NCBI RefSeq assembly: GCF_003334305.1
Contig: NZ_QOWS01000017.1
Length of the DNA stretch: 64,000 nt
Strand: one strand, 5' to 3'
Origin: Escherichia coli
GTDB lineage: Bacteria; Pseudomonadota; Gammaproteobacteria; Enterobacterales; Enterobacteriaceae
Numbering within the stretch: position 1 is the first letter of the stretch; every line of letters begins with the position of its first letter. A program made the position numbers and the translations under genes. Below, one piece after another: positions 29,874-45,012 of the stretch. The notes beneath the pieces were generated by a model. The model was not told the DNA's origin. It was given only the letters and a program-made list of their open reading frames with translations, and ran no database searches.

Positions 29874-29952
29874 GGAGACTCATCCTCAGACCGGCAAGCC
29901 AGGAAAAGGTCGCAGGAAAAACCGGCTTACTGTTTGTTTTTTTATATTTTAC

Positions 29953-30335: not shown

Positions 30336-30602
30336 ATGCAAGCTGTTTTTTCTTCCCCGTCTCCTGCCCCTGTGACGCCACTGATGCCGCTGCCGGACAT
30401 CACACAGGAGCGTTTTTTACGTCTGCCGGAAGTGATGCACCTGTGCGGCCTGTCACGCTCGACCATCTATGAACTTATCCGTAAGGGGGAATTTCCGCCG
30501 CAGGTGAGTCTTGGCGGTAAAAATGTGGCCTGGCTGCACTCTGAAGTCACCGCATGGATGGCCGGGCGCATTGCCGGACGCAAACGGGGGTACGACGCAT
30601 GA
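30336..30602 (+). CDS. vis: Vis / AlpA-family excisionase-regulator
   Basis: 88 aa. MerR-like w[49 protein letters not shown]. Same length as P4 orf88 (Vis). Confidence 0.8.
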
Positions 30603-30637
30603 TGATGCCCGCTCTGCAAAAAGTCCCTTTTTCTGGC

Positions 30638-30667
30638 TTGCCTTTTTCCGGCATTTGCGGATATAGT
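30638..30667 (+). promoter_or_regulatory. candidate PLE-like sigma70 promoter
   Basis: TTGCCT - 18 nt - TATAGT immediately downstream of vis, where P4 places its early/immunity promoter (recalled). Confidence 0.35.
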
Positions 30668-30991
30668 TTTTCCGTTGCCGCAAAATCGGCAGCCGGGCGT
30701 GAGAACCCGTGTAACTCGAAGGCGACATATGACGCGCCATGCGTCTTTTTTTGTGTCGCAATCAACGCCACAGAGCGCCAGATTATGGTGTGGCGTGTGG
30801 TTTGCCGTGCAGGTATGATCCTGTTCGCAATCGCATGTTATGCCACTGAGTCAATGGTAGCTCAGGCGGGGCAGCCTCCGGGCTGGCCGGTATTCTTCGA
30901 GGCCGGTATTCTCACCCCCGTCTGGGCTATCGCCATCGAGCGTGAGAACTCCGGCGATAGCAGTTATTTGCTACTCGAAGGAGGCTGCCTT

Positions 30992-31189
30992 ATGGCTACA
31001 ACCCTTACCCCCTCACACCCTGAATTTGTCTTTGTGTTTGCGGCTGTCCGTCGCGCAGACCGTCATCCCCGTATCTGCATGCTTCGCACCGTCGCCGGTG
31101 ATGAACGCAGCGCCCGCCGTTCCCTTGTCCGTGACTATGTGCTCTCCCTTGCTGCCCGTCTGCCGGTGGTGGAGGTGTCCCGTGCGTAA
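30992..31189 (+). CDS. Icd-like / P4 kil-region small protein
   Basis: 65 aa [45 protein letters not shown]... with a strong RBS gaaggagg 6 nt upstream. Resembles proteins annotated as Icd-like cell-division inhibitors in P4-like elements (recalled). Confidence 0.5.
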
Positions 31190-31469
31190 TAAAAAAGCCC
31201 CTCAGACCGTCTCAGCACGTCATGACGCCCGTGAACACCTCAGCATTGAGGCTTACCATAAGCTCAACCGCGCCAGCTCCGTATCCCAGTTTGTTGGGGG
31301 TGATTTGATTCACCGTGAACTCTCCGGCCTGCATCAGCTCTACATTCCGCATATTTTCAGCTACCTGAATGAAGATATTGATTTTGTGCTGAATGAGCTG
31401 AAAGCCAAAGGCCTGTGCCGCGATTTTCTCGCCCAGCAGAAAGACCGGGGAGACAGGACGCATGTTTGA
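31182..31469 (+). CDS. eps: Epsilon-like antirepressor (derepresses P2-type helper)
   Basis: 95 aa from a GTG preceded by ggaggtg. Position directly upstream of orf151 as in P4. Confidence 0.6.
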
Positions 31470-31917
31470 TTTTCCCCAGCCCGGTGAGATTTACCGTTCT
31501 GCCGGTTTTCCCGATGTGGCCGTGGTCGGCATTCTGGAAGACGGTATTCCGTGGGAAATGCCGTACCGCTGCCCGGACATTGTCTGGAACCCGTACCGCC
31601 GTAAATTCAGTATCCTTGTGCGTATCCTCGCTGACGGACGCACCACAGACATCCCGCTGGGGCGTTTTCTGCGGGAATTTACCTGTGACCGTCCTGACCT
31701 GTTTAAACGCAGCCCCGTAAACCGGCATGCGGTACTGAAAGAAATGGCCGGAGACCCGGAATTACAGAAATGGCGGGAAAAATATCTGGATATTTACCCG
31801 CAGGCCCCTGTTCCGGTCAGCCGGGCGGCACCGGTGGCGCGGGAATGGCGGGAAATTCCCCGCACGGAGCCTGACCCGGAAATCACCCCGGATAACAGTT
31901 ACCGCAATTATCTGTAA
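31462..31917 (+). CDS. P4 orf151-like protein
   Basis: 151 aa. The start overlaps the epsilon stop. Same length and position as P4 orf151. Confidence 0.65.
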   Translation: MFDFPQPGEIYRSAGFPDVAVVGILEDGIPWEMPYRCPDIVWNPYRRKFSILVRILADGRTTDIPLGRFLREFTCDRPDLFKRSPVNRHAVLKEMAGDPELQKWREKYLDIYPQAPVPVSRAAPVAREWREIPRTEPDPEITPDNSYRNYL

Positions 31918-32052
31918 TTAAAAAACGACACCCGAAAAATTAAATGTGCGTATTCGCGCAGGGATACGCACGTCTTCAGGAGACGCAGATATGCCTTATC
32001 AGTTAATGCAACCGGCACGGAATGCAGTCATCTGTCACAGGGAGGAAAGCAA

Positions 32053-32373
32053 ATGAAAACCCCCTTACCGCCCGTCTTACGCGCAGCCCTTTACCGTCGC
32101 GCTGTCGCCTGTGCCTGGCTGACCGTGTGCGAACGTCAGCACCGCTACCCGCATCTCACCCTTGAATCACTGGAGGCGGCCATCGCCGCTGAGCTGGAAG
32201 GCTTTTATCTGCGCCAGCACGGTGAGGAAAAAGGGCGTCAGATAGCCTGTGCCCTGCTGGAAGATTTAATGGAATCCGGCCCCCTGAAGGCCGCGCCGTC
32301 GCTGTCCTTTCTCGGGCTGGTTGTGATGGATGAACTCTGTGCCCGTCACATAAAAGCGCCGGTACTGCACTGA
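32053..32373 (+). CDS. conserved P4-family hypothetical protein upstream of alpha
   Basis: 106 aa with RBS gggagga. Same position, and as far as I recall the same length, as a P4 left-operon ORF. Confidence 0.55.
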
Positions 32374-32387
32374 AGGAGAACAACACC

Positions 32388-34721
32388 ATGAAAATGAACG
32401 TAACCGCCACCGTCAGCCATGCACTCGGCCACTGGCCGCGTATTCTCCCGGCGCTGGGGATTCAGGTGCTGAAAAACCGTCATCAGCCCTGTCCGGTCTG
32501 TGGCGGGAGTGACCGCTTCCGTTTTGATGACAGGGAGGGGCGCGGCACCTGGTACTGCAATCAGTGTGGTGCCGGTGACGGCCTGAAACTGGTTGAAAAG
32601 GTGTTTGGTGTTTCCCCGTCCGACGCGGCCGCAAAGGTGGCTGCCGTGACCGGCAGCCTGCCACCGGCTGACCCGGCAGTGACGGCCGCCGCCGTTGCTG
32701 AAACAGACGCTGCCCGGAAGAACGCCGCCACACTGGCACAAACCCTGATGGCGAAAACCCGTACCGGAACCGGTAACGCCTACCTGACCCGCAAGGGCTT
32801 TCCCGGCCGGGAATGCCGGATGCTGACCGGCACACACAGAGCCGGTGGCGTGAGCTGGCGCGCCGGTGACCTTGTGGTGCCACTGTATGACGACAGCGGC
32901 GAACTGGTTAACCTTCAGTTAATCAGTGCTGACGGCCGTAAGCGCACCCTGAAAGGCGGACAGGTCAGGGGCACCTGTCACACCCTTGAAGGACAGAATC
33001 AGGCCGGAAAACGTCTGTGGATAGCGGAGGGATACGCGACCGCACTTACCGTACATCACCTGACCGGTGAAACGGTGATGGTGGCGCTTTCTTCCGTGAA
33101 CCTCCTTTCTCTGGCCAGCCTTGCCCGGCAGAAGCATCCGGCCTGTCAGATTGTCCTTGCCGCAGACCGTGACCTCAGCGGTGACGGCCAGAAAAAAGCC
33201 GCCGCAGCCGCAGATGCGTGTGAGGGCGTTGTTGCCCTGCCGCCGGTCTTCGGTGACTGGAATGATGCCTTCACGCAGTACGGCGGGGAGGCCACCCGTA
33301 AGGCCATTTACGATGCCATCCGGCCACCGGCTGAAAGCCCGTTCGACACCATGAGCGAAGCAGAGTTTTCCGCCATGAGTACCAGCGAAAAGGCCATGCG
33401 TATCTATGAGCATTACGGTGAGGCGCTCGCGGTCGATGCCAACGGCCAGCTTCTGTCTCGCTATGAAAATGGTGTCTGGAAGGTGCTGCCGCCACAGGAC
33501 TTTGCCCGGGATGTGGCCGGGCTGTTTCAGCGTCTGCGCGCGCCGTTCTCCTCCGGGAAGGTGGCCTCCGTGGTGGACACCCTGAAGCTGATTATTCCGC
33601 AGCAGGAAGCCCCCTCCCGCCGCCTGATTGGCTTTCGTAACGGTGTGCTCGACACACAGAACGGCACGTTCCACCCGCACAGTCCGTCACACTGGATGCG
33701 CACCCTGTGCGATGTGGATTTCACCCCGCCGGTGGACGGTGAAACGCTGGAGACCCACGCCCCCGCGTTCTGGCGCTGGCTTGACCGTGCCGCCGGTGGC
33801 CGTGCGGAAAAACGCGACGTGATTCTGGCCGCACTGTTTATGGTGCTGGCAAACCGCTATGACTGGCAGCTCTTTCTGGAGGTGACCGGTCCCGGCGGCA
33901 GCGGCAAAAGTATCATGGCCGAAATAGCCACCCTGCTGGCCGGGGAGGATAACGCCACGTCGGCCACCATTGAGACGCTGGAATCCCCGCGTGAACGTGC
34001 CGCGTTAACTGGCTTCTCACTGATACGCCTGCCGGACCAGGAAAAATGGAGCGGCGACGGTGCCGGACTCAAGGCCATCACCGGCGGCGATGCGGTGTCC
34101 GTTGACCCGAAATACCGGGATGCATACTCCACGCATATCCCGGCGGTGATTCTGGCCGTGAACAATAACCCGATGCGCTTCACCGACCGCAGCGGCGGCG
34201 TGTCACGCCGGCGGGTGATTATTCACTTCCCGGAACAGATAGCCCCGCAGGAGCGCGACCCGCAGCTTAAGGACAAAATCACCCGCGAGCTGGCGGTCAT
34301 CGTGCGTCACCTGATGCAGAAGTTCAGCGACCCGATGCTCGCCCGGTCACTGCTTCAGTCCCAGCAGAACTCAGACGAGGCGCTGAACATCAAACGGGAT
34401 GCCGACCCGACGTTTGATTTTATCGGCTATCTGGAAACCCTGCCGCAGACCAGCGGCATGTATATGGGGAACGCCAGTATCATCCCGCGTAATTACCGTA
34501 AATACCTCTATCACGCCTATCTGGCCTACATGGAGGCAAACGGCTACCGGAATGTACTCAGTCTGAAAATGTTCGGGCTGGGGCTGCCGGTGATGCTGAA
34601 GGAATACGGACTGAATTACGAGAAGCGCCATACCAAACAGGGGATACAGACCAACCTGACGCTGAAAGAGGAAAGCTACGGCGACTGGCTGCCAAAATGT
34701 GACGACCCTGCAACAACCTGA
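32388..34721 (+). CDS. alpha: Alpha primase-helicase-origin binding protein
   Basis: 777 aa. Zinc-ribbon CPVCGGSDRFRFDD...WYCNQCG, TOPRIM primase region, Walker A GPGGSGKS helicase domain. Confidence 0.9.
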   Translation: MKMNVTATVSHALGHWPRILPALGIQVLKNRHQPCPVCGGSDRFRFDDREGRGTWYCNQCGAGDGLKLVEKVFGVSPSDAAAKVAAVTGSLPPADPAVTAAAVAETDAARKNAATLAQTLMAKTRTGTGNAYLTRKGFPGRECRMLTGTHRAGGVSWRAGDLVVPLYDDSGELVNLQLISADGRKRTLKGGQVRGTCHTLEGQNQAGKRLWIAEGYATALTVHHLTGETVMVALSSVNLLSLASLARQKHPACQIVLAADRDLSGDGQKKAAAAADACEGVVALPPVFGDWNDAFTQYGGEATRKAIYDAIRPPAESPFDTMSEAEFSAMSTSEKAMRIYEHYGEALAVDANGQLLSRYENGVWKVLPPQDFARDVAGLFQRLRAPFSSGKVASVVDTLKLIIPQQEAPSRRLIGFRNGVLDTQNGTFHPHSPSHWMRTLCDVDFTPPVDGETLETHAPAFWRWLDRAAGGRAEKRDVILAALFMVLANRYDWQLFLEVTGPGGSGKSIMAEIATLLAGEDNATSATIETLESPRERAALTGFSLIRLPDQEKWSGDGAGLKAITGGDAVSVDPKYRDAYSTHIPAVILAVNNNPMRFTDRSGGVSRRRVIIHFPEQIAPQERDPQLKDKITRELAVIVRHLMQKFSDPMLARSLLQSQQNSDEALNIKRDADPTFDFIGYLETLPQTSGMYMGNASIIPRNYRKYLYHAYLAYMEANGYRNVLSLKMFGLGLPVMLKEYGLNYEKRHTKQGIQTNLTLKEESYGDWLPKCDDPATT

Positions 34722-34728
34722 CCCACCT

Positions 34729-34753
34729 GACCGGCATCTGCCGGTCTTTTTTT
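34729..34753 (+). terminator. intrinsic terminator after alpha
   Basis: gaccggca-tc-tgccggtc followed by T7. Confidence 0.7.
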
Positions 34754-34767
34754 ATCCCTGAATTCCC

Positions 34768-35070
34768 CGAAGGTGAACAATCCACTGTTCACCCTTCACC
34801 GTATATTCACCCGTTATCACACTGAAATTAAAAGAGAAAAACGAAAGGTGAACAGTGTGAACAATCAAATCAAAAAAAACTTTTTTCTTCCTGAGTGATT
34901 TCAGCACGGGAAATTAATCCCCTGCACAAGTCACACCGGCAGAATGCCGGAGGTGAAGAATCGAATGTTCACCCTTCACCCATTATTCACCACCTATCCA
35001 ACTGAAATAAAAGGAGAAAACAGAAAGGTGAACAGTGTGAACAGTTCTTTCGAAAAAAAATTTTTTTCTT
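34768..35070. repeat. crr-like cis replication region: two ~120-bp direct repeats with TGTTCACC/GGTGAACA octamers
   Basis: 34768-34885 and 34948-35065 align nearly base for base (ggtgaa[c/g]aatc..tgttcacccttcacc..attcacc..gaaaggtgaacagtgtgaaca). About 4.8 kb from the ori cluster, as in P4. Confidence 0.75.
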
Positions 35071-35184
35071 ATTTTTAATTGTGCGAAAAACAAGCGACAC
35101 ACGCAGTGTGTATAGATATGTGTATAGTTATATTTTTTGAATATTATAATGTATTACAAATCAATGTGTTAGCTTGTAATATTC

Positions 35185-35205
35185 ACTCCTATTATCGGCA
35201 CCATC
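35185..35205. repeat. att core copy 2 (attR of P4-like element = attL of second island)
   Basis: Exact 21-bp copy of the thrW 3' end. Confidence 0.85.
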
Positions 35206-35270
35206 AAGAAAATCAATAACTTAGCTTAACTTCTCTAAGAAATTGTATCTTCTGTTATCACTTACAAACG

Positions 35271-35675
35271 CCTATACGTTGTTATGGGCTTTGGTAGTGT
35301 AACACGTATGGGCGAGTAGTTCCCAGGCTCAACCTCGTAACAAGTTCCTTTGAAGCTGGAAGACGTGCCACCGTCTCTAAACCTTCTACCAAAACTCTTA
35401 GCAAGATGTTCCACACCTGGCGCGGTGTCCAATGATGCTACACGTCGTGAGACGTTGCAGAGGATAAACAGGCTAAATGATGGGAAGAGTTTTAAGTGCA
35501 ATAGTGGATTAAAGCCCACCTCTTCAAAACCTAACTTGATCGGGAAAGAATCAAGCTCTAGCACGGTTTCGTCCACCGGAGTACAACGGGTGCCTGATAA
35601 GAGAAGAACTGCTAAGACTTCATAGCTTTTGTGAAAAAGCCCTTTTTAGTGGATACGCCTACGGCGCTTATTTTT
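35271..35675 (+). ncRNA. candidate structured non-coding RNA (class unknown)
   Basis: GC-enriched patch in AT-rich DNA. Contains a 13-bp hairpin (35271-35311), GUGA-capped hairpins (35442-35455 and 35625-35640), 6-bp helices (35484-35525 and 35535-35555), and a weak stem plus T6 at 35656-35676. The only ORFs here are two mutually antisense ones without RBS. Confidence 0.3.
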
Positions 35676-35808
35676 TGGTATAACCATCAAAGGCGCTTTA
35701 TGGCTCCTATTGTCTTGAAAATGTATCTTTACTTGTATTGTGTTTTATGCGTAGTCTCCCTGTGTAGTATGTAACTTGTTAATTTTCATATGAATACAGA
35801 GGCACACG

Positions 35809-35967
35809 ATGAAAAACATTGCAGCTATCAAACGGAATAACCGCAAGATTCACGCTCGTAAGTTCCTGTCTACGCCAGAAGGAAAAGCCTGGCTAGAGCG
35901 TAAACAGAGAGAAAACGAAGAAAGAAAACTCCTTAGTGAGTTGAAATGGCTTAGAGAGGATTTCTGA
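35809..35967 (+). CDS. small basic hypothetical protein (52 aa)
   Basis: MKNIAAIKRNNRKIHARKFLSTPEGKAWLERKQRENEERKLLSELKWLREDF. Weak RBS (gagg). Below the size cutoff of the ORF track. Confidence 0.3.
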   Translation: MKNIAAIKRNNRKIHARKFLSTPEGKAWLERKQRENEERKLLSELKWLREDF

Positions 35968-36310
35968 AAATCTCCAGAACGCAACAGGACGCATTCTAAC
36001 GCTGTTTTCATTACTCGGTATAGGGATTATAGGTGATGTGTGTTTAATGCGTCTGTGAGCTTGTTTTGTGCCTTATTTTGCATTTTCATAATGCAGGAGA
36101 GAACACGGAAAGCCTTAAAATTAATTATTGGGGTATTTAAGGCTATTTTTAGGTTATTTAAGGGTATTAAACTTGATTTAATTGATTGAAATATAAACAG
36201 ATAATTATGTATCTTATTGATTTATAAGGTTATTTTTAAATAAAGGTAAATAAAAAATAAATAGCCATAAATAGCTATAAATACATCTAAATACCTATAT
36301 CCCTTCCCTT

Positions 36311-36694
36311 ATGGCTAGATTGCGAGAAGTGCTTAACGCGATTTTCAGCGCCCCCCGATCTGGAAAATCCAGAATCCCCAAATATCAGCAAGGAATTTTC
36401 TTGCGTAATCAACATCGTTTTTACCTATTAAATCATTACACAGAAAGCCTTTCTGTAATGTCTCTCACTAAACTTTCACTAAACACGAGAATGATCGGTT
36501 TTATGTCGGATCAGATGCTAGAAATAGCACCACGTCTCACAAGGGCTGTAAGCGATGAAACCAGTGTTTATGCGGGTGCAGGTCAAAATATAGGCCAAAA
36601 TACATTTAACATAATAAACGTAATATGCACTAAGGAACACATAGAACGCCTTGAGTTGATGTATCAGGGGAAAAGTGGTGGATTTTTTACGTAG
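36311..36694 (+). CDS. hypothetical protein
   Basis: 127-codon ORF with no recognisable domain and no clear RBS. An internal start at MSLTKLSLNTR is possible. Confidence 0.3.
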   Translation: MARLREVLNAIFSAPRSGKSRIPKYQQGIFLRNQHRFYLLNHYTESLSVMSLTKLSLNTRMIGFMSDQMLEIAPRLTRAVSDETSVYAGAGQNIGQNTFNIINVICTKEHIERLELMYQGKSGGFFT

Positions 36695-36713
36695 GAGCAC
36701 GAGAGGGCTTCTA

Positions 36714-36741
36714 TTGACTTTTGTATGCTATGAAATATAAT
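36714..36741 (+). promoter_or_regulatory. candidate sigma70 promoter
   Basis: TTGACT - 16 nt - TATAAT. It overlaps the putative start of the 36730 ORF, so one of the two calls is probably wrong. Confidence 0.35.
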
Positions 36742-36999
36742 AGAAGGTTTTTTTATGTTGATAGTGATTGCACATTAAAGATTGAAAGCAAATTTAAACA
36801 TAAATTTTCAACACGTGAAAGAGAACTTGTTCGACAAATGATAAAACGTTTATTGAGCAACAATTTTGCAGTGATGCGCTATATGCCGAATTACACAAGG
36901 CTTTGCGAAAGTGATGTAAAAGTGAAGAAAGTAAGAATTGCAACTTTAAGCTACTTTTCATTGAATTTTTTAGTATGGAATTACACAGGAATAAGTTAG
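36730..36999 (+). CDS. hypothetical protein (doubtful)
   Basis: 89-codon ORF from ATG 36730. No domain recognised. The 3' end runs into the TTACAC motif field. Confidence 0.2.
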   Translation: MKYNRRFFYVDSDCTLKIESKFKHKFSTRERELVRQMIKRLLSNNFAVMRYMPNYTRLCESDVKVKKVRIATLSYFSLNFLVWNYTGIS

Positions 37000-37084
37000 G
37001 GATATTCTATGATTTACACAGGGAATATAGGGGGATTATGGCACACACATAGAAAGACATTACACAAAGTGCTATGTGACAAAT

Positions 37085-37305
37085 GGATGTAACGAGAGGT
37101 TACATTCAGCTATCTGAAATGCTCTCTGTAAGAAAGTTGGTAGTAACGATATGTTACATAGACTAATTATTGAATGTAACGATATTACACATCGGTAGTA
37201 ACGATACGTTACATCGACTAATTATTGAATGTAACGATATTACACATCGGTAGTAACGATACGTTACATCGACAGATGATTGGATGTAACGAAAGGTTAC
37301 ACAAT
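37085..37305. repeat. iteron array: 55-bp tandem repeats carrying GTAAC-N5-GTTAC palindromes
   Basis: Units at 37139-37193 and 37194-37248 differ at 2 positions. A third partial unit runs 37249-37302, with a further palindrome atgtaacgagaggttacat at 37087-37105. That makes about 7 palindromic or half-palindromic sites. Confidence 0.85.
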
Positions 37306-37500
37306 AAGACTATATTATTTATAATACTAAATAAAACTATATTAGATTATTAATTAGATCATAATAATATTCTTTATATCTATATATATGATCTTTTGCC
37401 TTCCGGCGTTAGCTTCACTCCCTGGCAAGCAGCCTTACTCCGCTACCTTTCGGGCTACGTTGGCTGGCCCGTTCCGCTCACACCGAAAGCAAAGCGTTAC

Positions 37501-37542
37501 TTTCTTCGTGTAACTATCGTGGCGGTAACGCCCACGAAGAAA
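37501..37542. other. long hairpin with GNRA-capped inner helix inside a GC-rich patch
   Basis: tttcttcgtg (37501-37510) pairs perfectly with cacgaagaaa (37533-37542). Inner ggcg-GTAA-cgcc at 37521-37532. Confidence 0.5.
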
Positions 37543-37624
37543 TACTATTGCGCTGTGCGCAGAAGAGTAATCACCTAACCAATCATAGATTGCTTATGTG
37601 TTAACTCTCTCTACCTCTTAATTC

Positions 37625-37776
37625 CACTTCCTACATTTAATAACTCTGTTATTCTCTGTAGTTGTGTAATTACTCGAAGAGAGAGCGGCTAAAGCTCAAT
37701 TACACTCTGCTTTCCTCGTGTAAGTTCACTAAGCCTCAATACAATTTCACTTCCTACATTCTGTAGTCGTGTAATT
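37625..37776. repeat. dispersed direct repeats (cacttcctacatt and ctgtagtYgtgtaatt)
   Basis: cacttcctacatt at 37625 and 37748. ctgtagttgtgtaatt at 37656 and ctgtagtcgtgtaatt at 37761. The modules are adjacent in copy B and 18 bp apart in copy A. Confidence 0.75.
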
Positions 37777-38398
37777 GTTTTCGGTGGAAAAGCCAGAGGC
37801 GACACCGAAAGAGAATTCTGATCTTATTAATCTTATCTATCTTAGTTAATCTTCTTACTTTATCTACTTTATTATTAATAATAGCTTTATAAGCTCTGTG
37901 TAGCTCTCTGACGCAAGAAACAGCATTCAGGAAGGGAATCACCTTAGAAAAGGTGTTCTTTGCGTCATAATGTGTTTTATGAAGGATTCAGAGGTGTTTC
38001 ATAACAGGAATGTATAGAGGATATTTTAATTAATTAAAAATAAGGGGTCTAAATGCTTCTCTAACAACATTAAGCAGGGTAGGGAATGGAAACGCATTGC
38101 CTACATATAATAAGCTCACTACAGGGCTTTACAGAGCGTTTTATAAAGTGACTCTCTGTTTTATATTTACCATTACCTTTTCATATACCTAACAAATACA
38201 AAATAAGCCCCTTCAATAAGCCTCTGGCGAGCGAAACAGCCATTAGATAAGGGAATGTATTGCTTTTATCAAAATCTCGTCAGAATGCGATTGAGAGTGT
38301 TTTAGCGGATAATGAAGAATAGCACTACATAGAAGAGCACGAATTGTTAAGCAAAATCATAACATACTGAAAAAGATCAGTTTTTTTGTGAAAAGGTA

Positions 38399-38427
38399 TT
38401 GACAAACGTCTCTTTCTGTGCAATAAT
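38399..38427 (+). promoter_or_regulatory. strong sigma70 promoter P1 (extended -10)
   Basis: TTGACA - 17 nt - TGcAATAAT, followed by agg-TATTAG-aGGGG. Paralogous to the promoter at 40928. Confidence 0.65.
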
Positions 38428-38486
38428 AGGTATTAGAGGGGACAGGAATAGATTCTTATCCTCTAAATAATTAAACCAATGCACCG

Positions 38487-38526
38487 CACTTTGAAGCCCA
38501 AGAGGCTTGCAAGGTGTTTTTTCTTT
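38487..38526 (+). terminator. intrinsic terminator ending the P1 leader
   Basis: Interrupted stem (acttt-g-aagcc / ggctt-gc-aaggt) followed by gTTTTTTCTTTT. Ends 29 nt before the first ATG of the operon. Confidence 0.6.
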
Positions 38527-38554
38527 TAACCAAATCGAATAAGGAGGCTAATTA

Positions 38555-38731
38555 ATGAAATATTTCACTCCACAGGATGTAGTAGAAGCCTGGAAACGTG
38601 GTGAGATCAACCGCTTTAAAGTAAGGATGTATAGAAACACCGCTCGCCGTTGTGGTTATCCAGAGCGTGAAAAATGTTTTGACGATGCACTGAAAATTAT
38701 TGATGAACTGCGTAAAGCTGAGAAAGAATAA
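38555..38731 (+). CDS. small hypothetical protein (58 aa)
   Basis: ATG preceded by aaggagg at optimal spacing. MKYFTPQDVVEAWKRGEINRFKVRMYRNTARRCGYPEREKCFDDALKIIDELRKAEKE. Missed by the 60-aa ORF cutoff. Confidence 0.55.
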   Translation: MKYFTPQDVVEAWKRGEINRFKVRMYRNTARRCGYPEREKCFDDALKIIDELRKAEKE

Positions 38732-38753
38732 TAGACAAGAGAAGGAGAAAACT

Positions 38754-38921
38754 ATGAGCGAAACTAAGAAACCAATTCCGCGCACTTACCTTCACGTTGA
38801 CCCTGAAATCTTCAAGGTTTTATTTGCTGAAGCCAAGAAAAGGCAAATTATGGTCAGTGATTTGATGTTAGAAATCATTACTGAAGCAGCAGAGAACATC
38901 AAACAAAAAAAGGGTAAGTGA
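38754..38921 (+). CDS. ribbon-helix-helix (Arc/CopG-like) DNA-binding protein
   Basis: 55 aa from the ATG after gaaggag. The pattern PRTYLHVDPEIFKVLFAEAKKRQIMVSDLMLEIITEAAENI fits strand-helix-helix. Confidence 0.5.
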   Translation: MSETKKPIPRTYLHVDPEIFKVLFAEAKKRQIMVSDLMLEIITEAAENIKQKKGK

Positions 38922-38974
38922 TCCTCATTCACTTTAGTAGCGCATTAAGCGTGATTTATAAGGAGATGATTCTA

Positions 38975-39718
38975 ATGTCTAAAATTAAATTGATTCGTGA
39001 AAAATACCAGTATGTTGATAAACAAACAGGAGAAATTAAAGACCGAACTTTGAATATACCGCATTACTTTTGTGAGATTGAATTTATCTACTCCTCAAGT
39101 GTTGATGGTGGAAAAGTTAAGTTTAGTGCAGAAATGCAAAAATTATATTGCTATGTTTCAGATTGGGAGAAATCAGGGGGGATATGTTTTGAAACACAAA
39201 CGAAGTTAAGTAAAGTTTGTGGCTGTAGCCGTAAGACAGTTAATGAACTGATTGGTCTTATGATTAAAATCGGTCTTTTAGAAGAGGTCGGAGAACGAAT
39301 TCCAAAACGTCCTTTAAAATTACGTGCGCTACCTCTCACAGATGCACATATTACTCCCCCAGGAGAATCATCACTCTCTGATCTTTCTGAGGCAGAAGAA
39401 GCACAGGAACAACCTAAAGGCCATAAACAGCCTTCTTTTGATGTTCTTGATGATTGGGATGCGCCTTTACCGTGGGAGACGGAAGAAACACCTGTTTCAT
39501 CAAGTGAAAAGGTAGCTAATGATAATGAGGAGGATGTATTAGAGAATTTTGCCTCTCTTATCATCCAGGAGAAACACACAAGAACAGGAGGAGCATCATT
39601 TATTGAGTTTGCAAATTCACTAGCTTATAGATACGGGCTAAAACGACCAAATGGTATTGAGGCATATTTTTCTAAGAATTACCCAAATGTATATGATGAA
39701 TTTGATATTCCCTTTTAA
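38975..39718 (+). CDS. wHTH replication-initiator-like protein with acidic linker
   Basis: Start after taaggag. The segment LYCYVSDWEKSGGICFETQTKLSKVCGCSRKTVNELIGLMIKIGLLEE resembles HTH_36-type plasmid/phage Rep N-domains (recalled pattern). Has an acidic D/E/S-rich middle. Confidence 0.45.
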   Translation: MSKIKLIREKYQYVDKQTGEIKDRTLNIPHYFCEIEFIYSSSVDGGKVKFSAEMQKLYCYVSDWEKSGGICFETQTKLSKVCGCSRKTVNELIGLMIKIGLLEEVGERIPKRPLKLRALPLTDAHITPPGESSLSDLSEAEEAQEQPKGHKQPSFDVLDDWDAPLPWETEETPVSSSEKVANDNEEDVLENFASLIIQEKHTRTGGASFIEFANSLAYRYGLKRPNGIEAYFSKNYPNVYDEFDIPF

Positions 39719-39729
39719 TAAGGAGGACT

Positions 39730-40009
39730 ATGATTCAATATTTAGTAAAAAAATCAAGTAGACAGAATTCAGTGTAATGACACAGGAAAACGCATCTACG
39801 AAACACTTGCTTACCTCTATAAAGGAAAGCCAACACCGCTAAAATATAGCGATGTGTTACATCGAGCAGGGTGCTCTGAAGCTGGTTTAAAATTCTGGCT
39901 GAAACAGCTATCAAATTTCGGTGTTATTGAAATGAAAGAGCTGTCTTTTTCTACATTCAATCTCAAAAGATTAGATAAAGAAATAGAATTCATCTATTCC
40001 ACTCTCTAA
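39730..40009 (+). pseudogene. wHTH protein gene interrupted by a frameshift in an A7 run (or using programmed slippage)
   Basis: Strong RBS taaggagg then ATG 39730. The frame closes at 39777. The +1 frame stays open to 40009 and encodes ...GKRIYETLAYLYKGKPTPLKYSDVLHRAGCSEAGLKFWLKQLSNFGVIEMKE. The switch point is A7 at 39747-39753. One fewer A gives a continuous 92-aa ORF. Confidence 0.5.
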
Positions 40010-40050
40010 AATCTCTCTATGTAATTAAAATATAAAAGGAAAACATTATT

Positions 40051-40170
40051 ATGATAGTAGCTATGTATTGGTTATTGTTCTTTCTCACGTTAGAAGCATA
40101 CTTTGGGGTGTTTTCCTTTAAAAGAAAAGGAAAAGTAAATAATGGCAAAAAGAAAAAACAACGTTGTTAA
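40051..40170 (+). CDS. small hydrophobic peptide with polybasic tail (39 aa)
   Basis: MIVAMYWLLFFLTLEAYFGVFSFKRKGKVNNGKKKKQRC: one TM helix plus a K-rich tail. RBS-like aagga 10 nt upstream. Overlaps the next ORF by 29 nt. Confidence 0.3.
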   Translation: MIVAMYWLLFFLTLEAYFGVFSFKRKGKVNNGKKKKQRC

Positions 40171-40558
40171 GAAAATCGGTGATTCAGCTTCTCTTCTAAG
40201 TAAACCTAAACCTAAATCTATTCTAAGACGTAAAGACTTTAAAGAGCTAGTTACGCTCACCAAGCAAAATAGCGCCCCTGGCGAATGGAAAACAGAGATC
40301 ATAGAACATTCTCCCTCTGTGCCTTGTGGAGATGAATTTAACGCCTTGCAAGAAATCTTATCTTCAACACCTGGCGTATTCTGGAAACCTAGAAAAAGAA
40401 AAGAGTATATCGTTGATAGCTCTGATTTACGCAAATACCAGATTTTAGGATTTGAAGATTATAACCACTACGTCGGTTATCTCGCCACCAATGGCCTAAA
40501 TAATTTAGTTCCTGAATTCCAAATTTTAGATAATGCTGATCACTATGGAGACTTTTAA
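40142..40558 (+). CDS. hypothetical protein with basic N-terminus
   Basis: 138 aa in the same orientation as the operon. No domain recognised. Confidence 0.5.
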   Translation: MAKRKNNVVKKIGDSASLLSKPKPKSILRRKDFKELVTLTKQNSAPGEWKTEIIEHSPSVPCGDEFNALQEILSSTPGVFWKPRKRKEYIVDSSDLRKYQILGFEDYNHYVGYLATNGLNNLVPEFQILDNADHYGDF

Positions 40559-40559
40559 T

Positions 40560-40898
40560 ATGAACAAAAACACGTATGACACAATTTATTCACTAATTAA
40601 TTATTATGAGGATGATTACCTCCTGCCTTTAAACCGCGCTGAACTTGAAGCATACAAAGAAAACACGCCAGGGGCGCTAAATGAGGCGTTTAAACACTGG
40701 GATTTAGCTGTGAATGCCTTTGAGCACCTTTCTAAAAGAGTAGAGATGCTCTGTAAGCGTGAAAACGCATACCTGACAGCCGATCAGATATGGGAGCTAT
40801 CAAACTGGATAGAAGATATTGAATCTGATGTTCGCTATGTAGGGGATGGCCTGGTTGAATTAGCTCAACGCTTAGGCGCTACTATCACAGAAGAATAA
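40560..40898 (+). CDS. hypothetical protein
   Basis: 112 aa from an ATG 2 nt after the upstream stop. Helical and acidic. No domain recognised. Confidence 0.5.
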   Translation: MNKNTYDTIYSLINYYEDDYLLPLNRAELEAYKENTPGALNEAFKHWDLAVNAFEHLSKRVEMLCKRENAYLTADQIWELSNWIEDIESDVRYVGDGLVELAQRLGATITEE

Positions 40899-40927
40899 AA
40901 AAAGCAACAAAAAAGTTGTAAAATATC

Positions 40928-40956
40928 TTGACATTCCATCTATTGTATGTTAATAT
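40928..40956 (+). promoter_or_regulatory. strong sigma70 promoter P2 (extended -10)
   Basis: TTGACA - 17 nt - TGtTAATAT, followed by aat-TATATA-GGGG. Same layout as P1. Confidence 0.65.
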
Positions 40957-41094
40957 AATTATATAGGGGTGATTATTTTTCCTTTATTGGTTCGATATTA
41001 AAAATTCTTCCTGTCATTAAAGGGGAGTAAAATCTCCGCTCCCCGCTTCTCCTCCTTAAGTAAATACTGTGTCATTATACCTCTTTTTTCCTTT

Positions 41095-41124
41095 GTTATG
41101 CATACATCTTGGAGTATGCATAAC
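41095..41124. other. perfect 10-bp inverted repeat in the P2 leader
   Basis: gttatgcata-catcttggag-tatgcataac. Confidence 0.6.
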
Positions 41125-41153
41125 ATAGGGTAATTACATAGGTATGAGTTAAT

Positions 41154-41185
41154 AAAAGGCGGCTCTAAATGCTGCCTTTTATTTT
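41154..41185 (+). terminator. intrinsic terminator ending the P2 leader
   Basis: aaaaggcggc-tctaaat-gctgcctttt (10 bp including one G-U) followed by ATTTT. Ends 63 nt before ATG 41248. Confidence 0.65.
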
Positions 41186-41247
41186 GCCCGTTATGCAACT
41201 TAAAAGTTGTATTTCTTACTTTAAAAAAGGTAACAAGGTTTATATAA

Positions 41248-41460
41248 ATGTTGTTTTTAAACGATAAAGAGCAAATCATCAAGTATAAAGATGAAATGCT
41301 GAAAATTAATCCACAAATTACCGAAATGGTAGCTAAATACGCTGGGTGTTCTGTCGAGGAAGTAGAAAGATGTGTTGAAAAATATTTTTCTCCTTCTACT
41401 CCGTCTACACCTTCCCTTAATGAATTAATCAAATTAAAAGCTAAGGAGATTACTAAATGA
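41248..41460 (+). CDS. small hypothetical protein
   Basis: 70 aa. First gene after the P2 leader. The stop overlaps the next start (ATGA). Confidence 0.5.
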   Translation: MLFLNDKEQIIKYKDEMLKINPQITEMVAKYAGCSVEEVERCVEKYFSPSTPSTPSLNELIKLKAKEITK

Positions 41461-41819
41461 TTATTGATTTAGACACTCTGTTTCCAGTTAGAAAGACTTT
41501 CACAGATATTGTAAGTTATTGTACTGATCCGTTTGCCTCTGTAGAAAGCAAGGTTTTTGCTTCTCTTCCTGCTGATGTTGAGTGCGGCGACTTGATCACC
41601 AGTACTGGCGCTAAATATGAATCAGGAGATGATATCTATGTTGTTATGAGTGAATTTGTAACGGCTGGAGAAAACAAGCCTGTAGATGTGCTACGTAGTA
41701 ATGCTGGTCTTGTCTGCATCAAAGCTGATGCGCTGAATGCTGTAAGTGAAGCAGCAAAAACAGCATTAATTAAAAAAGGCTTCCAGCTTGAAGGGTTCCA
41801 TTCTGTTTTCACTTCTTAA
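41457..41819 (+). CDS. head-decoration-like protein (lambda D-like position and size)
   Basis: 120 aa directly upstream of the capsid-like gene. The size and G-rich beta-type pattern loosely resemble lambda gpD-type decoration proteins. The call is based on synteny. Confidence 0.4.
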   Translation: MIIDLDTLFPVRKTFTDIVSYCTDPFASVESKVFASLPADVECGDLITSTGAKYESGDDIYVVMSEFVTAGENKPVDVLRSNAGLVCIKADALNAVSEAAKTALIKKGFQLEGFHSVFTS

Positions 41820-41837
41820 TAAAAGGAATAATAATAA

Positions 41838-42869
41838 ATGATTCTAGGTAATGATTACGTTGATTTAGCTCCGCTTTTCCAGGCACACAGCACTAGAAAC
41901 TTTCTGCTCTCTACCCTCGACTTCACTGATCCGGTGGGCGTTAGTTCTCATAAAGTAGCTGTTTCTCAGCTTGTCGAAAGCAACGAATCTCTGTTCAACA
42001 AAGAAACCTCTCGTTTCTCTTCTGAACACAATGTTACTAAGCGTGAACAAGGTAAAGAATGGCTGATTGAAATCCCGTATTTTCTTCGTGAAGATGTGAT
42101 CCGTCCTTCTGATGTTCAAGGCAAGCGTAAGCCTGGCACTGATTTTCAGGAAACACTCACTGATATCTATGCGGAATATATCGCTAAACACCACGTAGCG
42201 TATCAGCGTACAAAAGAGAGCGTGTTGGCTGCATCTCTGTTTAGCGGTAAAACTTACACGCCTAAAACTGATGATGTTCTTATCGAGTGGGGCAAGCTGT
42301 TTAACGTGGCACCTATGAAAGCCACCTTGAACGCTTCCAGCACTGACACAATGACCGTTTTCAAGCAATTTGACCAGCTTGCTACGGATATGATTGCTAA
42401 GGCACAAAACCAGGCTGCAACCATTGAGCGTGTTGTTGTGTTCTGTAAACCTGCGGCATTCAACGCTATTCGTTACAGTGTTGGTATGGTCAATGCTTTC
42501 CAATATGCAAGCCCTGTAGACGATGCCAACGTGGTGTTTAATGTGCGTTCCCTGCTACCAGGTGTAACTACTTTCACCATTCCAGGAACTAACATTGACC
42601 TGATCAAAGTGACTGATCCGCTACACCTTGCACATATGGCTTCTGATGCGGTTGCTGTGCCTAAATTCGCTAAGGGGGCAGGTGTTTACCAATCTATCTA
42701 TGGGGCAGCTTCCAGCACCTTTGAACTGATCAATGCCGCTCCTGCTGAGGTGTATAGCTATAGCTATGAATCTTCTTCTCGTGGTGATGCTGTTAACGTT
42801 GTTACAGAGAATAGCCAGATGGTGGTAAACCACGGCGTTGGTTTCTCCGTTCAAATCACTGTTAAATAA
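41838..42869 (+). CDS. major capsid protein, lambda gpE-like family (putative)
   Basis: 343 aa (lambda gpE is 341 aa). N-terminal LAPLFQAHSTRNFLLSTLDF resembles the P.TFLLDTFF motif I recall from Phage_cap_E proteins. RBS aaaggaa. Followed by a strong terminator. Confidence 0.5.
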   Translation: MILGNDYVDLAPLFQAHSTRNFLLSTLDFTDPVGVSSHKVAVSQLVESNESLFNKETSRFSSEHNVTKREQGKEWLIEIPYFLREDVIRPSDVQGKRKPGTDFQETLTDIYAEYIAKHHVAYQRTKESVLAASLFSGKTYTPKTDDVLIEWGKLFNVAPMKATLNASSTDTMTVFKQFDQLATDMIAKAQNQAATIERVVVFCKPAAFNAIRYSVGMVNAFQYASPVDDANVVFNVRSLLPGVTTFTIPGTNIDLIKVTDPLHLAHMASDAVAVPKFAKGAGVYQSIYGAASSTFELINAAPAEVYSYSYESSSRGDAVNVVTENSQMVVNHGVGFSVQITVK

Positions 42870-42887
42870 TATTTTAACGTGTAATAG

Positions 42888-42922
42888 AGGCGTGGCGTGA
42901 ATAACACGCTTCGCCTTTTTTT
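42888..42922 (+). terminator. intrinsic terminator after the capsid-like gene
   Basis: aggcg-tg-gcgtg aataa cacgc-tt-cgcct followed by T6. Confidence 0.7.
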
Positions 42923-42955
42923 ATTTATTTTTAAATTTTGAGAGGTGATTAAAAT

Positions 42956-43159
42956 ATGGAAGTGATTCTGAAATCAAAAAATGGTGTACACGTTTATTTA
43001 GATGCTAATGATTCAAGAGGCTTGTTAAATCTGAAATATCTATGTTCTCTCTTGGATGTTCCATATGAAGGCGTAAAAGCCCGAATGTTCAGATTAAACG
43101 AGAGTATTGATCAAGCTCTACACCATTTCTTAAGCAAAGAAGGTGGTAAAAATGATTAA
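42956..43159 (+). CDS. small hypothetical protein (possible HTH)
   Basis: 67 aa with RBS gagagg. The segment LKYLCSLLDVPYEGVKARMFRLNESIDQAL looks HTH-like. Confidence 0.45.
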   Translation: MEVILKSKNGVHVYLDANDSRGLLNLKYLCSLLDVPYEGVKARMFRLNESIDQALHHFLSKEGGKND

Positions 43160-43173
43160 TAAGGGGATTTTAA

Positions 43174-45012
43174 ATGTTAGAAATTAACACTTCTAAAATT
43201 AAGAACACAGTAACATTTAGTGTAGATAAAGACAGCTTGAAAAAAGCGAAAGACTCTATTACAGGCTTAAAGGAATTCACAGAAAACATCAAGCCAGCTA
43301 AATTAAGGTTTGATAGTGTCACTAAAGGCTATAAGAAAGCACAAAGCGAAGTAGACAAGATTGCTCAACAGAAAGCTAAAACAGAAAAGCAGAATCAAAG
43401 AGCACAAGCTGCCGCAGCAAGAGCACAGGCAAGGCAACAGACACAAATAGCAGCACGTAAAGAGAAAGCAGAATTAAAGCTCCTCGATGTGTCAAGCTCT
43501 ATCAGTGCAATGCACCGCCTCTCTGTAGCGGAACAATACAAAGCTATTGCACAGGCTAGAGAGATAGCAAAACAATATGAGCAAGGGGCTATCTCGCTTG
43601 CACGTATGAATAGTCAGATGAAACGCCTACAACAGCAACAACGTAAGATTAATGGCAACAGAAAAGCTCAATTAGCCCCCGTTAAGGGAGGAGGATCAGG
43701 GAATTCCGCCACGATGGGTGCTCTGTTATTTGGAGGCGCTACAGCGGCTGCTGGCGTGATGGCTGTTAGTAAAGCGTCGGAGTTTGTTAGTAACAGTTTC
43801 GCTAACGCAGAGACACAAGGTGAGCTAATTCAACGTGCAAGGCTTGGCGGTGTAGACGTTAACCAGATGTACAACATTACAGAATGGGCCTATAGAAACG
43901 GCGTTGACTCTATGATGGGTGATCAAGGGGCTAGGAAATACCTGGATCAGATGAAAGATGTTAGGGAACGTGCCGCAAAATCCTATAGTGAAGCTGAATA
44001 TGTAGTCGATAAAAAAACTGGTAAAGGCGGCGAATGGAAAGGCGGTGATAACGCTATTAATGAACTTCTAAACATCGGTGTTATTAACAAGAGCGACCTT
44101 AAAAAATTTGCTGATAATCCAGCCGGATTAATTTCTAAGGCTGTTAATGGAATGATGAAAAAAGGGTTTTCAGACTCCCAAATTGGACAACGTTTAGAAG
44201 ACCTGGGTGATGATTTGATGCTTACATCAAAATATTGGCAACGTTCCGTTAAAGATGTACAAACAAGCATCGAGCAGCAAAAAGCCTCTGGAAAATGGCT
44301 AACAGAAACACAGCAAGATTCTATTGTTAAATTCAGAGAACTAAACAGACAGCTTTCACAGCTTTCTGATGCAAGACAAGTAGCATTTGTAGACGGCTTT
44401 ATGAAATCTCTCGATCCAAAAGTAACGGAAGAGTTTATGAAAAACCTTTCTAATCTCACTCCGTATTTTACAAAGCTGGGAGAAGCTACAGGAAGTCTCT
44501 TTGAAGCTATTATGAAGATTGTAAACTGGTTTAATCGTAATGATGATAAGACAGATGCTATTCAGAAAAATTTAGGTGATGCACCGCCATTAAGCAATGA
44601 AGGAATGAAACAGAATCTTTCTAATCTCGTTCCTGATCAATATAAAGGCGCTGGCACCGGAACAACTAAGCCAGATAACAGCAATTCCCTGTTTAACACT
44701 ATTAAGGGATTGCTTTTCGATGATAAGTCTTCTTCTGTGTCAGATGTAAAAATGTCAGTCAGCGAAGCACCGATAACCAATCTCAAACAGGGCGCTTTAA
44801 ATAATCTTGCAATGACAACTCCGGCTTATAATTTATCTCCTGTGTTTAATCTGAATCCTACATTTGAAGTGGTAACAGAGGTTCCTCTTACTATTAATTC
44901 TGACACATCAAGATTAAGCGATTATGTGGATTTTACAGCGAGATCAAGTCGGGATAGCTTCTTGAAATCATTAACATTAACCAGCTTATCAGGACAATCT
45001 AACGGCGGGTAA
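43174..45012 (+). CDS. tape-measure-like protein
   Basis: 612 aa. N-terminal Q/A/K-rich coiled coil, Gly-rich hydrophobic segment GGGSGNSATMGALLFGGATAAAGVMAV, then a long helical region. This composition is typical of tail tape measure proteins. Confidence 0.45.
   Translation: MLEINTSKIKNTVTFSVDKDSLKKAKDSITGLKEFTENIKPAKLRFDSVTKGYKKAQSEVDKIAQQKAKTEKQNQRAQAAAARAQARQQTQIAARKEKAELKLLDVSSSISAMHRLSVAEQYKAIAQAREIAKQYEQGAISLARMNSQMKRLQQQQRKINGNRKAQLAPVKGGGSGNSATMGALLFGGATAAAGVMAVSKASEFVSNSFANAETQGELIQRARLGGVDVNQMYNITEWAYRNGVDSMMGDQGARKYLDQMKDVRERAAKSYSEAEYVVDKKTGKGGEWKGGDNAINELLNIGVINKSDLKKFADNPAGLISKAVNGMMKKGFSDSQIGQRLEDLGDDLMLTSKYWQRSVKDVQTSIEQQKASGKWLTETQQDSIVKFRELNRQLSQLSDARQVAFVDGFMKSLDPKVTEEFMKNLSNLTPYFTKLGEATGSLFEAIMKIVNWFNRNDDKTDAIQKNLGDAPPLSNEGMKQNLSNLVPDQYKGAGTGTTKPDNSNSLFNTIKGLLFDDKSSSVSDVKMSVSEAPITNLKQGALNNLAMTTPAYNLSPVFNLNPTFEVVTEVPLTINSDTSRLSDYVDFTARSSRDSFLKSLTLTSLSGQSNGG

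Follow-up and report, generated by a model that had tools for sequence, protein, structure and literature searches.

The 64,000-nucleotide (nt) stretch of Escherichia coli DNA described here (contig NZ_QOWS01000017.1; hereafter the window) carries the att core of the tRNA-Thr gene thrW (23283-23358 in the RefSeq annotation) three times, at the 3′ end of the tRNA gene (23340-23358), at 35187 and, with one deletion, at 47263-47281, showing that two elements lie in tandem at thrW. The core itself, ACTCCTATTATCGGCACCA(T), is 19-20 nt long. The second of the two elements, an island of approximately 12.1 kb (35187-47281), is the subject of this work, and in particular its left arm at 35206-38398, which makes up 26% of the island in keeping with the quarter given in a preliminary description of this DNA. 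In strains FDN-11 and 2013C-4830 the island directly adjoins thrW, and the arm is 100% identical to nt 1020379-1023571 of E. coli A7 (NZ_CP028767.1). A tyrosine integrase is encoded at 45842-47119, with all other island genes lying on one strand behind the promoter P1. The features of the arm are collected in Table 1 and those listed in the preliminary description (open reading frames (ORFs), promoters, G+C-enriched patches, iterons, the TTACAC field and the A/T block) were all found where it had placed them.

Annotated genes account for only 159 of the 3193 nt of the arm (5%) compared with approximately 7.5 of the 8.6 kb (87%) at 38555-47119 (RefSeq/PGAP annotation). Three weak ORFs without a recognisable domain had been described in the arm, and in keeping with this neither these (35809-35967, 36311-36694 and 36721-36999) nor four further ORFs gave a significant match in Pfam and PHROG searches. 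The arm was aligned block by block across approximately 50 related loci, taken from complete genomes of E. coli, from IMG/VR and from metagenomes. In these alignments the first of the three, far from being weak, behaves as a real gene of 52 amino acids (aa), with variable sites falling 3/2/10 over the codon positions and a protein that is 78% identical to the copy in L029, the upstream DNA of which is only 73% identical; searches of NCBIfam and PADLOC, like those of Pfam and PHROG, gave no match to it. The ORF at 36311-36694 is frameshifted in four of 10 distinct relatives and intact in the other six, with variable sites distributed 6/11/6 by codon position, that at 36721/36730-36999 has 1-nt indels in relatives, and those at 35262-35576(-), 35350-35625(+), 37396-37578(+) and 37754-37942(-) are broken in relatives. 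Judged on these alignments only 35809-35967 behaves as a gene and the arm is approximately 95% non-coding. Genuine genes filling most of the arm were not found among the relatives, such that the earlier view of a mostly non-coding region left blank by annotation was upheld.

Some part of the arm was found in 762 of the 5,426 complete E. coli genomes, and in none of them is it annotated. Where the DNA of the capsid gene is only 76-86% identical between islands, identity is still 98-100% over 35207-35700 and 90-99% over 37396-38125, with the segments outside the conserved blocks being exchanged as cassettes among relatives. All 30 family loci scanned have 1.0-1.8 kb free of genes between the conserved core sequence GAAAGTGATGTAAAAGTGAAGAAAG (36907 in the window) and P1, and these loci include islands at tRNA-Gly as well as shorter elements with a different integrase in the thiM thiamine pyrophosphate (TPP) riboswitch. 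These comparisons indicate that the arm is conserved and built of exchangeable modules, and this mosaic architecture, together with the phage-derived sequence set out below, had escaped the preliminary description. The G+C content is 0.44-0.45 at approximately 35200-35600 and 37400-37800 compared with 0.30-0.38 around them. Among the shorter relatives, those of approximately 7.5-9 kb at L009 5736-13564 and L012 3467-12453 are without capsid and tail genes and keep the core, block D, P1 and the initiator; elements of this type have a different integrase and are inserted in the thiM TPP riboswitch, with the riboswitch duplicated at both ends.

Table 1. Features of the left arm of the thrW island and its borders (positions in the window).
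Feature	Position	Strand	Remarks
attL core	35187..35206	+	copy of the tRNA-Thr (thrW) 3′ end; left island boundary
Candidate structured RNA (A1), ~470 nt	35207..35685	+	same orientation as the tRNA gene; ends in a GC stem and T-run at ~35655-35682
Motif GGCGCTTTATGGCTCCTATTGTCT	35692..35715	+	between the A1 terminator and the 52-aa gene; common to otherwise different thrW-type and tRNA-Gly-type islands
52-aa basic protein gene	35809..35967	+	WP_000788777.1, PGAP-annotated; only coding sequence in the arm
Phased A/T block	36124..36295	.	six TAAATA (36237, 36247, 36258, 36268, 36278, 36288) facing inverted TATTTA (36134, 36155)
Copy of the phi92-like right junction of the direct terminal repeat	36314..36388	-	36334-36359, last 26 nt of the repeat; 36314-36333, first unique bases
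Filler/cargo slot	36391..36700	.	body of the false ORF 36311-36694
Predicted sigma-70 promoter TTGACT-16-TATAAT	36714..36741	+	11/12 match; reads towards the origin
Conserved core with TTACAC boxes	36885..37066	+	boxes at 36890, 36980, 37013, 37059
Seven dyad iterons	37084..37303	.	TGTAACG-ATA-CGTTACA (TGTAACG-N3-CGTTACA type) and variant TGTAACGATATTACACA; 55-nt double units
AT-rich tract	37304..37395	.	adjoins the iterons, GC lowest here; presumed DNA-unwinding element
Block D	37396..38125	.	hairpin-rich, non-coding and nearly invariant; lies between the AT-rich tract and P1
~40-nt motif CTCTGGCGAGCGAAACAGC...AAGGGAAT	37903-37945 and 38219..38262	+	two copies; possible regulator sites upstream of P1
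Predicted promoter P1	38399..38427	+	TTGACA-17-AATAAT, 11/12, extended -10 TG; heads the single long plus-strand operon of the island
Leader hairpin and T-run	38486..38530	+	between P1 and the first gene; likely attenuator
attR	47263-47281		att core repeat with one deletion

Phage-derived sequence in the island

When the whole arm was searched against 50,697 phage records (2.3 Gb) essentially one kind of match was obtained, that of 36314-36359 to Justusliebigvirus, with 54 records including phi92. The segment matches phi92 nt 318-363 at 43 of 46 nt (93.5%; E = 7e-9), and with the left direct terminal repeat (DTR) of phi92 annotated at 1-343 the match straddles the right boundary of the repeat. 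Within this junction copy all 26 nt inside the repeat are identical and 17 of the following 20 unique nt match, with 40 contiguous nt being identical in most relatives. A weaker phage match extends the copy to 36388, giving approximately 75 nt (GATATTTGGGG; GATATTTG-GGGG). Among almost all carrier islands the junction segment is 98-100% conserved with its flanks at 88-99%, and it was found in 424 of the 5,426 E. coli genomes, nearly always in single copy and never annotated. Elements of the thiM type carry a second variant of the junction, the first 44 nt of which match phi92 289-332 at 89-93%, and a diverged partial copy in L020 represents a third. Four records marked UNVERIFIED and named as 'Campylobacter phage' (MG065639.1, MG065645.1, MG065656.1 and MG065689.1) are Justusliebigvirus genomes with the same junction, the stated host being probably wrong.

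Approximately 40 nt from the junction copy lies the phased A/T block of the preliminary description, in which six TAAATA units are spaced at 10-11 nt. In relatives the number of TAAATA copies differs by whole 10-nt units only, so that the phase of the array is kept and coding is ruled out. The slot that follows the junction copy is filled here by the body of the false ORF. In 11 relatives this filler is replaced by a serine recombinase gene (179-185 aa, minus strand; for example L007 11193-11732, L010 8236-8793 and L008 10805-11356), the stop codon and terminator hairpin of which abut the junction copy or its sequence variant on the same strand. In four of the relatives with the filler a further protein of 183 aa, secreted and bearing a signal peptide, is encoded upstream in the slot, and in L017 an element of the IS3 family is inserted at 36472-36474. 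As the filler is frameshifted, replaced or interrupted in relatives, the slot is dispensable.

Two proteins of the island are also related to those of phi92-like phages. The Dit-like protein (45047-45760) is 58-61% identical over approximately 90% of its length to the Justusliebigvirus 'tail tube initiator' (61% over 205 aa), while a 612-aa protein (43174-45012) is related to the Justusliebigvirus tape-measure protein (N-terminal 66 aa, 54% identity). In a complete Justusliebigvirus genome the two genes stand side by side, in the order that they have in the island, and on this similarity the tape-measure and tail-tube-initiator proteins of the island come from phi92-like phages. The capsid encoded at 41838-42869 is of the lambda-E type, and its relationship to any phage on deposit is only a distant one. 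Beyond the junction copy and the two tail genes the comparison of island and phage gave one weak 65-nt match at 38241-38305 (71% identity). phi92 encodes a resolvase/invertase-family serine recombinase of its own, gp053 (L080 15493-16155); the recombinase found in the slot of the relatives was considered as a close copy of gp053 and rejected as such, the identity being only 32% over 81 aa.

Origin region and conserved non-coding blocks

The iteron array and TTACAC field of the preliminary description were both recovered. GTAACGA occurs 16 times in the window compared with 5.8 expected, with seven occurrences in 37089-37292 where the seven dyad iterons lie, and ATTACAC occurs 17 times compared with 7.2 expected, with nine in 36435-37775. 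The AT-rich tract stands beside the iterons, a layout that is repeated in relatives with other iterons. The initiator gene is at 38975-39718, such that the iterons are 1.7 kb upstream of it, and its product gave a PHROG match to replication initiation, O-like and DnaD-like proteins, with Pfam HTH_36 just below threshold. The initiators of eight further loci, representing seven other N-terminal types, gave like PHROG and HTH_36 matches with E down to 1e-10. Across approximately 25 loci the iteron sequence was found to change with the N-terminal type of the initiator whatever its C-terminal type (at least five types), the motif ATGTAACGA pairing with the N-terminal type of the window and GGTAGGTCA, ATAGGGGTA, AACAGAATTCTGTT and CCCTAGCTCAC with others. 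The seven dyad iterons, the adjacent AT-rich tract, the family of the initiator and the co-variation of iteron and N-terminal type thus support a lambda-style iteron origin at 37084-37395 matched to the O-like initiator of the island. Together with the junction copy, such an origin bears out the expectation that the arm would hold cis-acting sites. No plasmid relatives of the origin and no solved structures related to the initiator were found, and a search of GTDB genomes for relatives of the initiator in other species returned three Escherichia-type loci only. Some homologues of the initiator carry the label 'LexA family', which was set aside as no peptidase domain backs it.

Every family member has kept the conserved core upstream of the iterons, GCATTACACAAGGCTTTGCGAAAGTGATGTAAAAGTGAAGAAAG...GGAATTACACAGG, even where the integrase and the iterons are of another kind. 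Since all sub-types retain the TTACAC boxes at 36890 and 36980 whatever their initiator, these boxes are not initiator-specific. They have 1-2 mismatches to TTWTNCACA (the DnaA-box consensus being TTATCCACA / TTWTNCACA) and are possibly weak DnaA boxes. The promoter at 36714-36741, as had been reported, is a near-consensus match and with P1 one of the two best in the region, and both of its hexamers are kept in all 10 relatives carrying the block.

Block D is 90-99% identical in type-1 islands. Two motifs in it are universal, CCGCTCACACCGAA at 37474-37487 and TGCGCTGTGCGC at 37549-37560, and it also contains a pair of repeat units (37620-37671 and 37743-37776) in which a CTACA..TGTAG inverted repeat is followed by GTGTAATT, and a long hairpin at 37909-37967. 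In type-2 islands block D is diverged, with the motifs CCGCTCACAnCGAA and TGCGCTGTGCGCAG...TAAT.A.CTAAC kept and a different hairpin between them. The stretch 37390-37600 folds modestly better than shuffled sequence (z approximately -2.4 on either strand), and no double changes were found in block D among 15 sequences, which hold too little variation. From where it lies, the block may be a structure for priming or helicase loading, or else a regulatory RNA. Across 37200-38000 the GC and AT skew are both negative, opposite to the plus-strand genes of the island and like the minus-strand integrase gene, and from this reversed skew block D may be, or may formerly have been, read in the minus direction. 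A link between block D and the C-terminal type of the initiator was rejected as functional coupling, both following the split of the family into two backbones.

Both copies of the approximately 40-nt motif upstream of P1 are recognisable in the type-2 island L011. The P1 sequence TTGACAAA is invariant in 25 relatives and the leader hairpin, GCACTTTGAAGCC-loop-GGCTTGCAAGGTG followed by TTTTTCTTTT, is likewise kept in 25 of 25. This hairpin and T-run in the operon leader (38430-38554) is a probable attenuator or target of antitermination, and to be expressed the long operon probably needs antitermination or some other release. Two more gene-free gaps occur within the operon, at 39719-40141 (approximately 420 nt) and 40899-41247 (approximately 350 nt).

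At the other end of the arm the segment 35207-35700, in which the element A1 lies, has the same identity of 98-100% in all thrW islands and was found in 564 genomes, never annotated. A copy of A1 with 73% identity is present at thrW in a different island, where it is again followed by the 52-aa gene, and partial copies lie 3′ of the tRNA-Gly att site in another sub-family. Several hairpins of A1 stay paired through changes on both sides of the stem. The first reads CTTGAT...ATCAAG in the window compared with CCGGAT...ATCCGG and CTGCAT...GTGCAG in relatives, another CTTTT-GTGA-AAAAG compared with CCCT-GCGA-AGGG and another GACG...CGTC compared with GAGT...ACTC. In two half-alignments 8 of 33 and 6 of 58 pairs (14 of 91 in total) had changed on both sides, compared with 0-2 in controls in which the partners were slid by 1-3 columns. 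The loops are of the GNRA type, G-U pairs favour the plus strand (being A-C on the other strand) and the terminator-like GC stem and T-run is kept via compensatory changes. On the strength of these compensatory changes, the GNRA loops, the strand bias of the G-U pairs and the kept terminator-like stem a plus-strand RNA of approximately 470 nt is a moderately supported candidate for A1. The preliminary description had proposed RNA genes and/or large cis-acting sites for the arm and had noted hairpin patches enriched in G+C; the composition of the patches was as stated, and for the first patch, which folds no better than shuffled sequence, it is the covariation that justifies the hairpins and lends the proposal of an RNA gene moderate support. 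A scan of Rfam, suggested at that stage as a check, gave chance-level matches only, with E from 0.85 upward and scores far below thresholds for a permissive scan of 35150-38560 and no match inside the arm for a scan of 34000-48500, so that the candidate is not in Rfam and no known RNA family was recognised in the arm.

The same segment could instead be a long attP arm holding sites for the integrase and for bending or excision factors, its conservation following the integrase module. That it adjoins the att core directly, is conserved along with the integrase (96-99%) in islands that differ elsewhere and has an overall fold that is not unusually stable would all be in keeping with such an arm. 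We consider this somewhat unlikely as an alternative to an RNA gene, since parts of the segment recur in tRNA-Gly islands with a different integrase, and since compensatory changes in GNRA-loop hairpins and a kept stem and T-run terminator are not required of protein-binding arm sites. The first approximately 100 nt of A1 may equally hold integrase arm sites, and the two roles could coexist there.

A candidate satellite of phi92-like phages

The presence in one island of a junction copied from a genome end and of phi92-type tail genes makes it fairly probable that the arm is the cis-acting control region of a satellite-like thrW island, the helper or target of which would be a phi92-like lytic myovirus (Justusliebigvirus). 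In keeping with this the island shows three generic traits of satellites, having its own integrase and att sites, its own replication module and an incomplete set of virion and packaging genes, the recognisable virion proteins being the capsid, tape-measure and Dit-like proteins only. A literature search returned no satellite of phi92-like, rV5-like or Stephanstirmvirinae phages and no island with this gene set, which suggests that a satellite of Justusliebigvirus of this kind has not been described previously; a paper on Tai tail interference was found to concern different proteins. The junction copy is in our view a candidate packaging or end-formation signal. No published packaging signal for the phi92-like group was found in the literature searched.

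In the satellite model a series of steps can be proposed for the arm. The A1 RNA would be made next to attL, in the integrated state probably through transcription running on from the tRNA gene, and would stop at its own terminator, after which comes the 52-aa basic protein gene. The slot would take cargo, a serine recombinase or a secreted protein in relatives and filler in the present island. The bent phased TAAATA array and the junction copy would together form a site recognised and cut by the end-making and packaging machinery of the helper on replicated island DNA, with the island thereby being packaged instead of, or alongside, the phage. The constitutive-looking promoter at 36714-36741 would fire into the origin, where the initiator would bind the seven dyad iterons via its N-terminal winged helix and open the adjacent AT-rich tract, with the universal TTACAC boxes binding a conserved host or island factor. 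Block D occupies the place in which one would look for a structure for priming or helicase loading, or for a regulatory RNA, and P1 with its leader terminator would gate the genes for the initiator, capsid, tape-measure and tail-tube-initiator proteins.

A number of observations weigh against the satellite model in whole or in part. No counterpart of the left DTR boundary was found in the island by blastn at word size 7 with both phi92 ends and a full Justusliebigvirus genome, which makes the production of a unit-length genome with terminal repeats hard to account for. The capsid is unrelated to phi92-like capsids, and domain searches recognised no terminase, portal, sheath or tube genes among the island proteins. 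All 26 metagenome contigs that carry the junction 26-mer were integrated islands or phage, with no packaged, excised, circular or linear forms. The iterons could in principle be operators of a regulator rather than an origin, as all database names call the initiator protein a 'transcriptional regulator'. As to A1, 35255-35690 as a whole folds no better than shuffled sequence (z -0.4 on the plus and -0.1 on the minus strand), and its covariation comes from three independent lineages only with structures predicted from the same sequences. The model also assigns no role to block D. For one contig starting beside the junction the best account is a break in assembly at the repeat common to phage and island. 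Two Logan contigs, L084 (12,093 nt, DRR634353) and L085 (12,171 nt, ERR13369719), are whole islands with the variant att core TGTGATTGGCATA and have their ends within the att core, not at the junction; they fit excision, coexisting empty sites or population heterogeneity and have no bearing on packaging ends.

Several of these points would suit an island that is mainly an anti-phage defence and is itself not transferred, with the junction copy acting as a decoy that titrates or misdirects the terminase or end-processing enzyme and with the variant tape-measure and tube-initiator proteins poisoning tail assembly. Only the right boundary of the repeat was found, no more than two of the phage tail proteins have homologues in the island and these might serve as dominant-negative subunits, and metagenomes show no packaged or excised form. 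A full set of mobility and replication functions (integrase, att sites, initiator and origin) and an own major capsid are however hard to explain without particle formation, and none of the nine island proteins scanned, including the capsid, tape-measure and Dit-like proteins, matches a known defence model. Moreover interference and transfer are not exclusive, PLE and P4 being elements that do both. A decoy without transfer is for these reasons judged unlikely. The junction copy might also be thought of as a res or crossover-type site for the adjacent small serine recombinase, used to recombine with or resolve concatemers of phage and island rather than as a terminase site, given that in the 11 relatives the junction copy or its variant directly follows the end of the resolvase-family gene and its hairpin and that phi92 encodes gp053. 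Against this the window and many relatives keep the junction copy without a recombinase, the recombinase and gp053 are as distant as noted above, and the match falls exactly on the mapped genome end, pointing to end formation, and we regard a recombination site as highly improbable.

A reading of the arm as for the most part decayed coding sequence and hitch-hiking filler, owing its conservation to recent spread or recombination, is likewise very unlikely. An ORF (36311-36694) that is still intact in six relatives, insertion sequences in the arm of several strains and whole blocks swapped or missing among relatives would all be understandable on such a view, and identities of 98-100% are also expected from a recent sweep. 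Decay does not however account for 35207-35700 and 37396-38125 remaining 90-100% identical where the capsid genes are at 76-86%, for the gene-free 1.0-1.8 kb being kept in every sub-family including those with different integrases, for iterons that co-vary with the initiator, for A/T array indels that preserve the 10-nt phase or for hairpins that stay paired via compensatory changes.

The proposed satellite has points in common with several known systems. Like P4 and PICI-type satellites with a copy of the helper cos or pac, it is an island at a tRNA gene that has an integrase and att sites as well as an initiator and origin of its own, carries few or no virion genes and contains a short genome-end segment copied from the putative helper. 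In contrast to P4-type satellites it lacks psu, delta, sid, epsilon, alpha and the crr repeats, all of which lie in the neighbour at 23359-35186, and in contrast to PICI domain searches recognised no Stl-type repressor, primase-helicase (pri-rep) or small-terminase and redirection genes in the island. The copied site also differs, being the DTR junction of a lytic 148-kb myovirus and not the cos or headful pac of a temperate phage. A putative virulent helper is shared with PLE of Vibrio cholerae, which exploits the lytic myovirus ICP1, and with PICMI, which exploits virulent vibriophages, and as with these the island would be both parasite and defence, reliant on structural and packaging proteins of the helper; no sequence relationship to either was found, and unlike them the island is in E. 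coli with its own lambda-E-type capsid and homologues of the tape-measure and tube-initiator proteins. As in cf-PICI a small island encodes its own major capsid, whereas no portal, protease, head-tail connector, small terminase or HNH protein was found among its 12 genes, which include tail genes instead.

The origin region resembles lambda ori/O and iteron plasmids of the pSC101, P1 and F type in having dyad iterons by an AT-rich tract, an initiator whose N-terminal winged helix would set the choice of iteron, a promoter directed into the origin and, next to the iterons, boxes that may be DnaA-like. It differs from lambda, where the origin is inside the initiator gene, in lying 1.7 kb upstream of that gene and in the lack of a recognisable P-like helicase loader in the island, and neither lambda nor the iteron plasmid origins have an equivalent of the conserved 760-nt hairpin block that separates the AT-rich tract from the promoter. 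With the concatemer junctions of T7/T3-type phages with short DTRs the island shares a repeat/unique junction sequence of the kind that defines genome ends, differing in that only one of the two boundaries is copied.

More tentatively, this could be the first chromosomal E. coli element to copy the DTR junction of a lytic myovirus so as to be cut and packaged, and with its 470-nt RNA fed by a tRNA promoter and its conserved 760-nt element next to the origin could constitute a new satellite family. If true such a family would be an E. coli counterpart of the Vibrio PLEs in approximately 8-14% of complete E. coli genomes. phi92-like and the related rV5-like phages are widely isolated for E. coli therapy and typing, and a common chromosomal element copying their genome-end junction and two tail genes would, if the satellite model holds, be an unrecognised determinant of their host range, yield and gene transfer. 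The copied 40-46 nt point to sequence that may be important for end formation in the phi92-like group. Three kb left blank in hundreds of genomes can now be divided into a predicted origin, a candidate packaging site, a candidate RNA and one unexplained conserved block.

The neighbouring element and distribution of the arm

Between thrW and the island lies a complete P4-like satellite (23359-35186) with int, a nuclease/helicase pair, psu, delta, sid, epsilon and the alpha primase-helicase (32388-34721), such that a single att site is occupied by two different satellites in tandem. The pair of 120-nt crr repeats (34767-35066) is part of this P4-like neighbour and not of the island. A Gabija system is present in the variable hotspot of the P4-like satellite, with GajA at 24694-26397 (E = 1e-253) and GajB at 26394-28016 (E = 3e-229). 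To the right of the low-GC island the RefSeq annotation gives a LysR pseudogene and paoD. IS1A, IS600 and IS3 elements were found within the arm of several E. coli strains (genomes H8-H12, H16 and H32), and the genomes bearing the arm include many O26, O111 and O104 pathogens.

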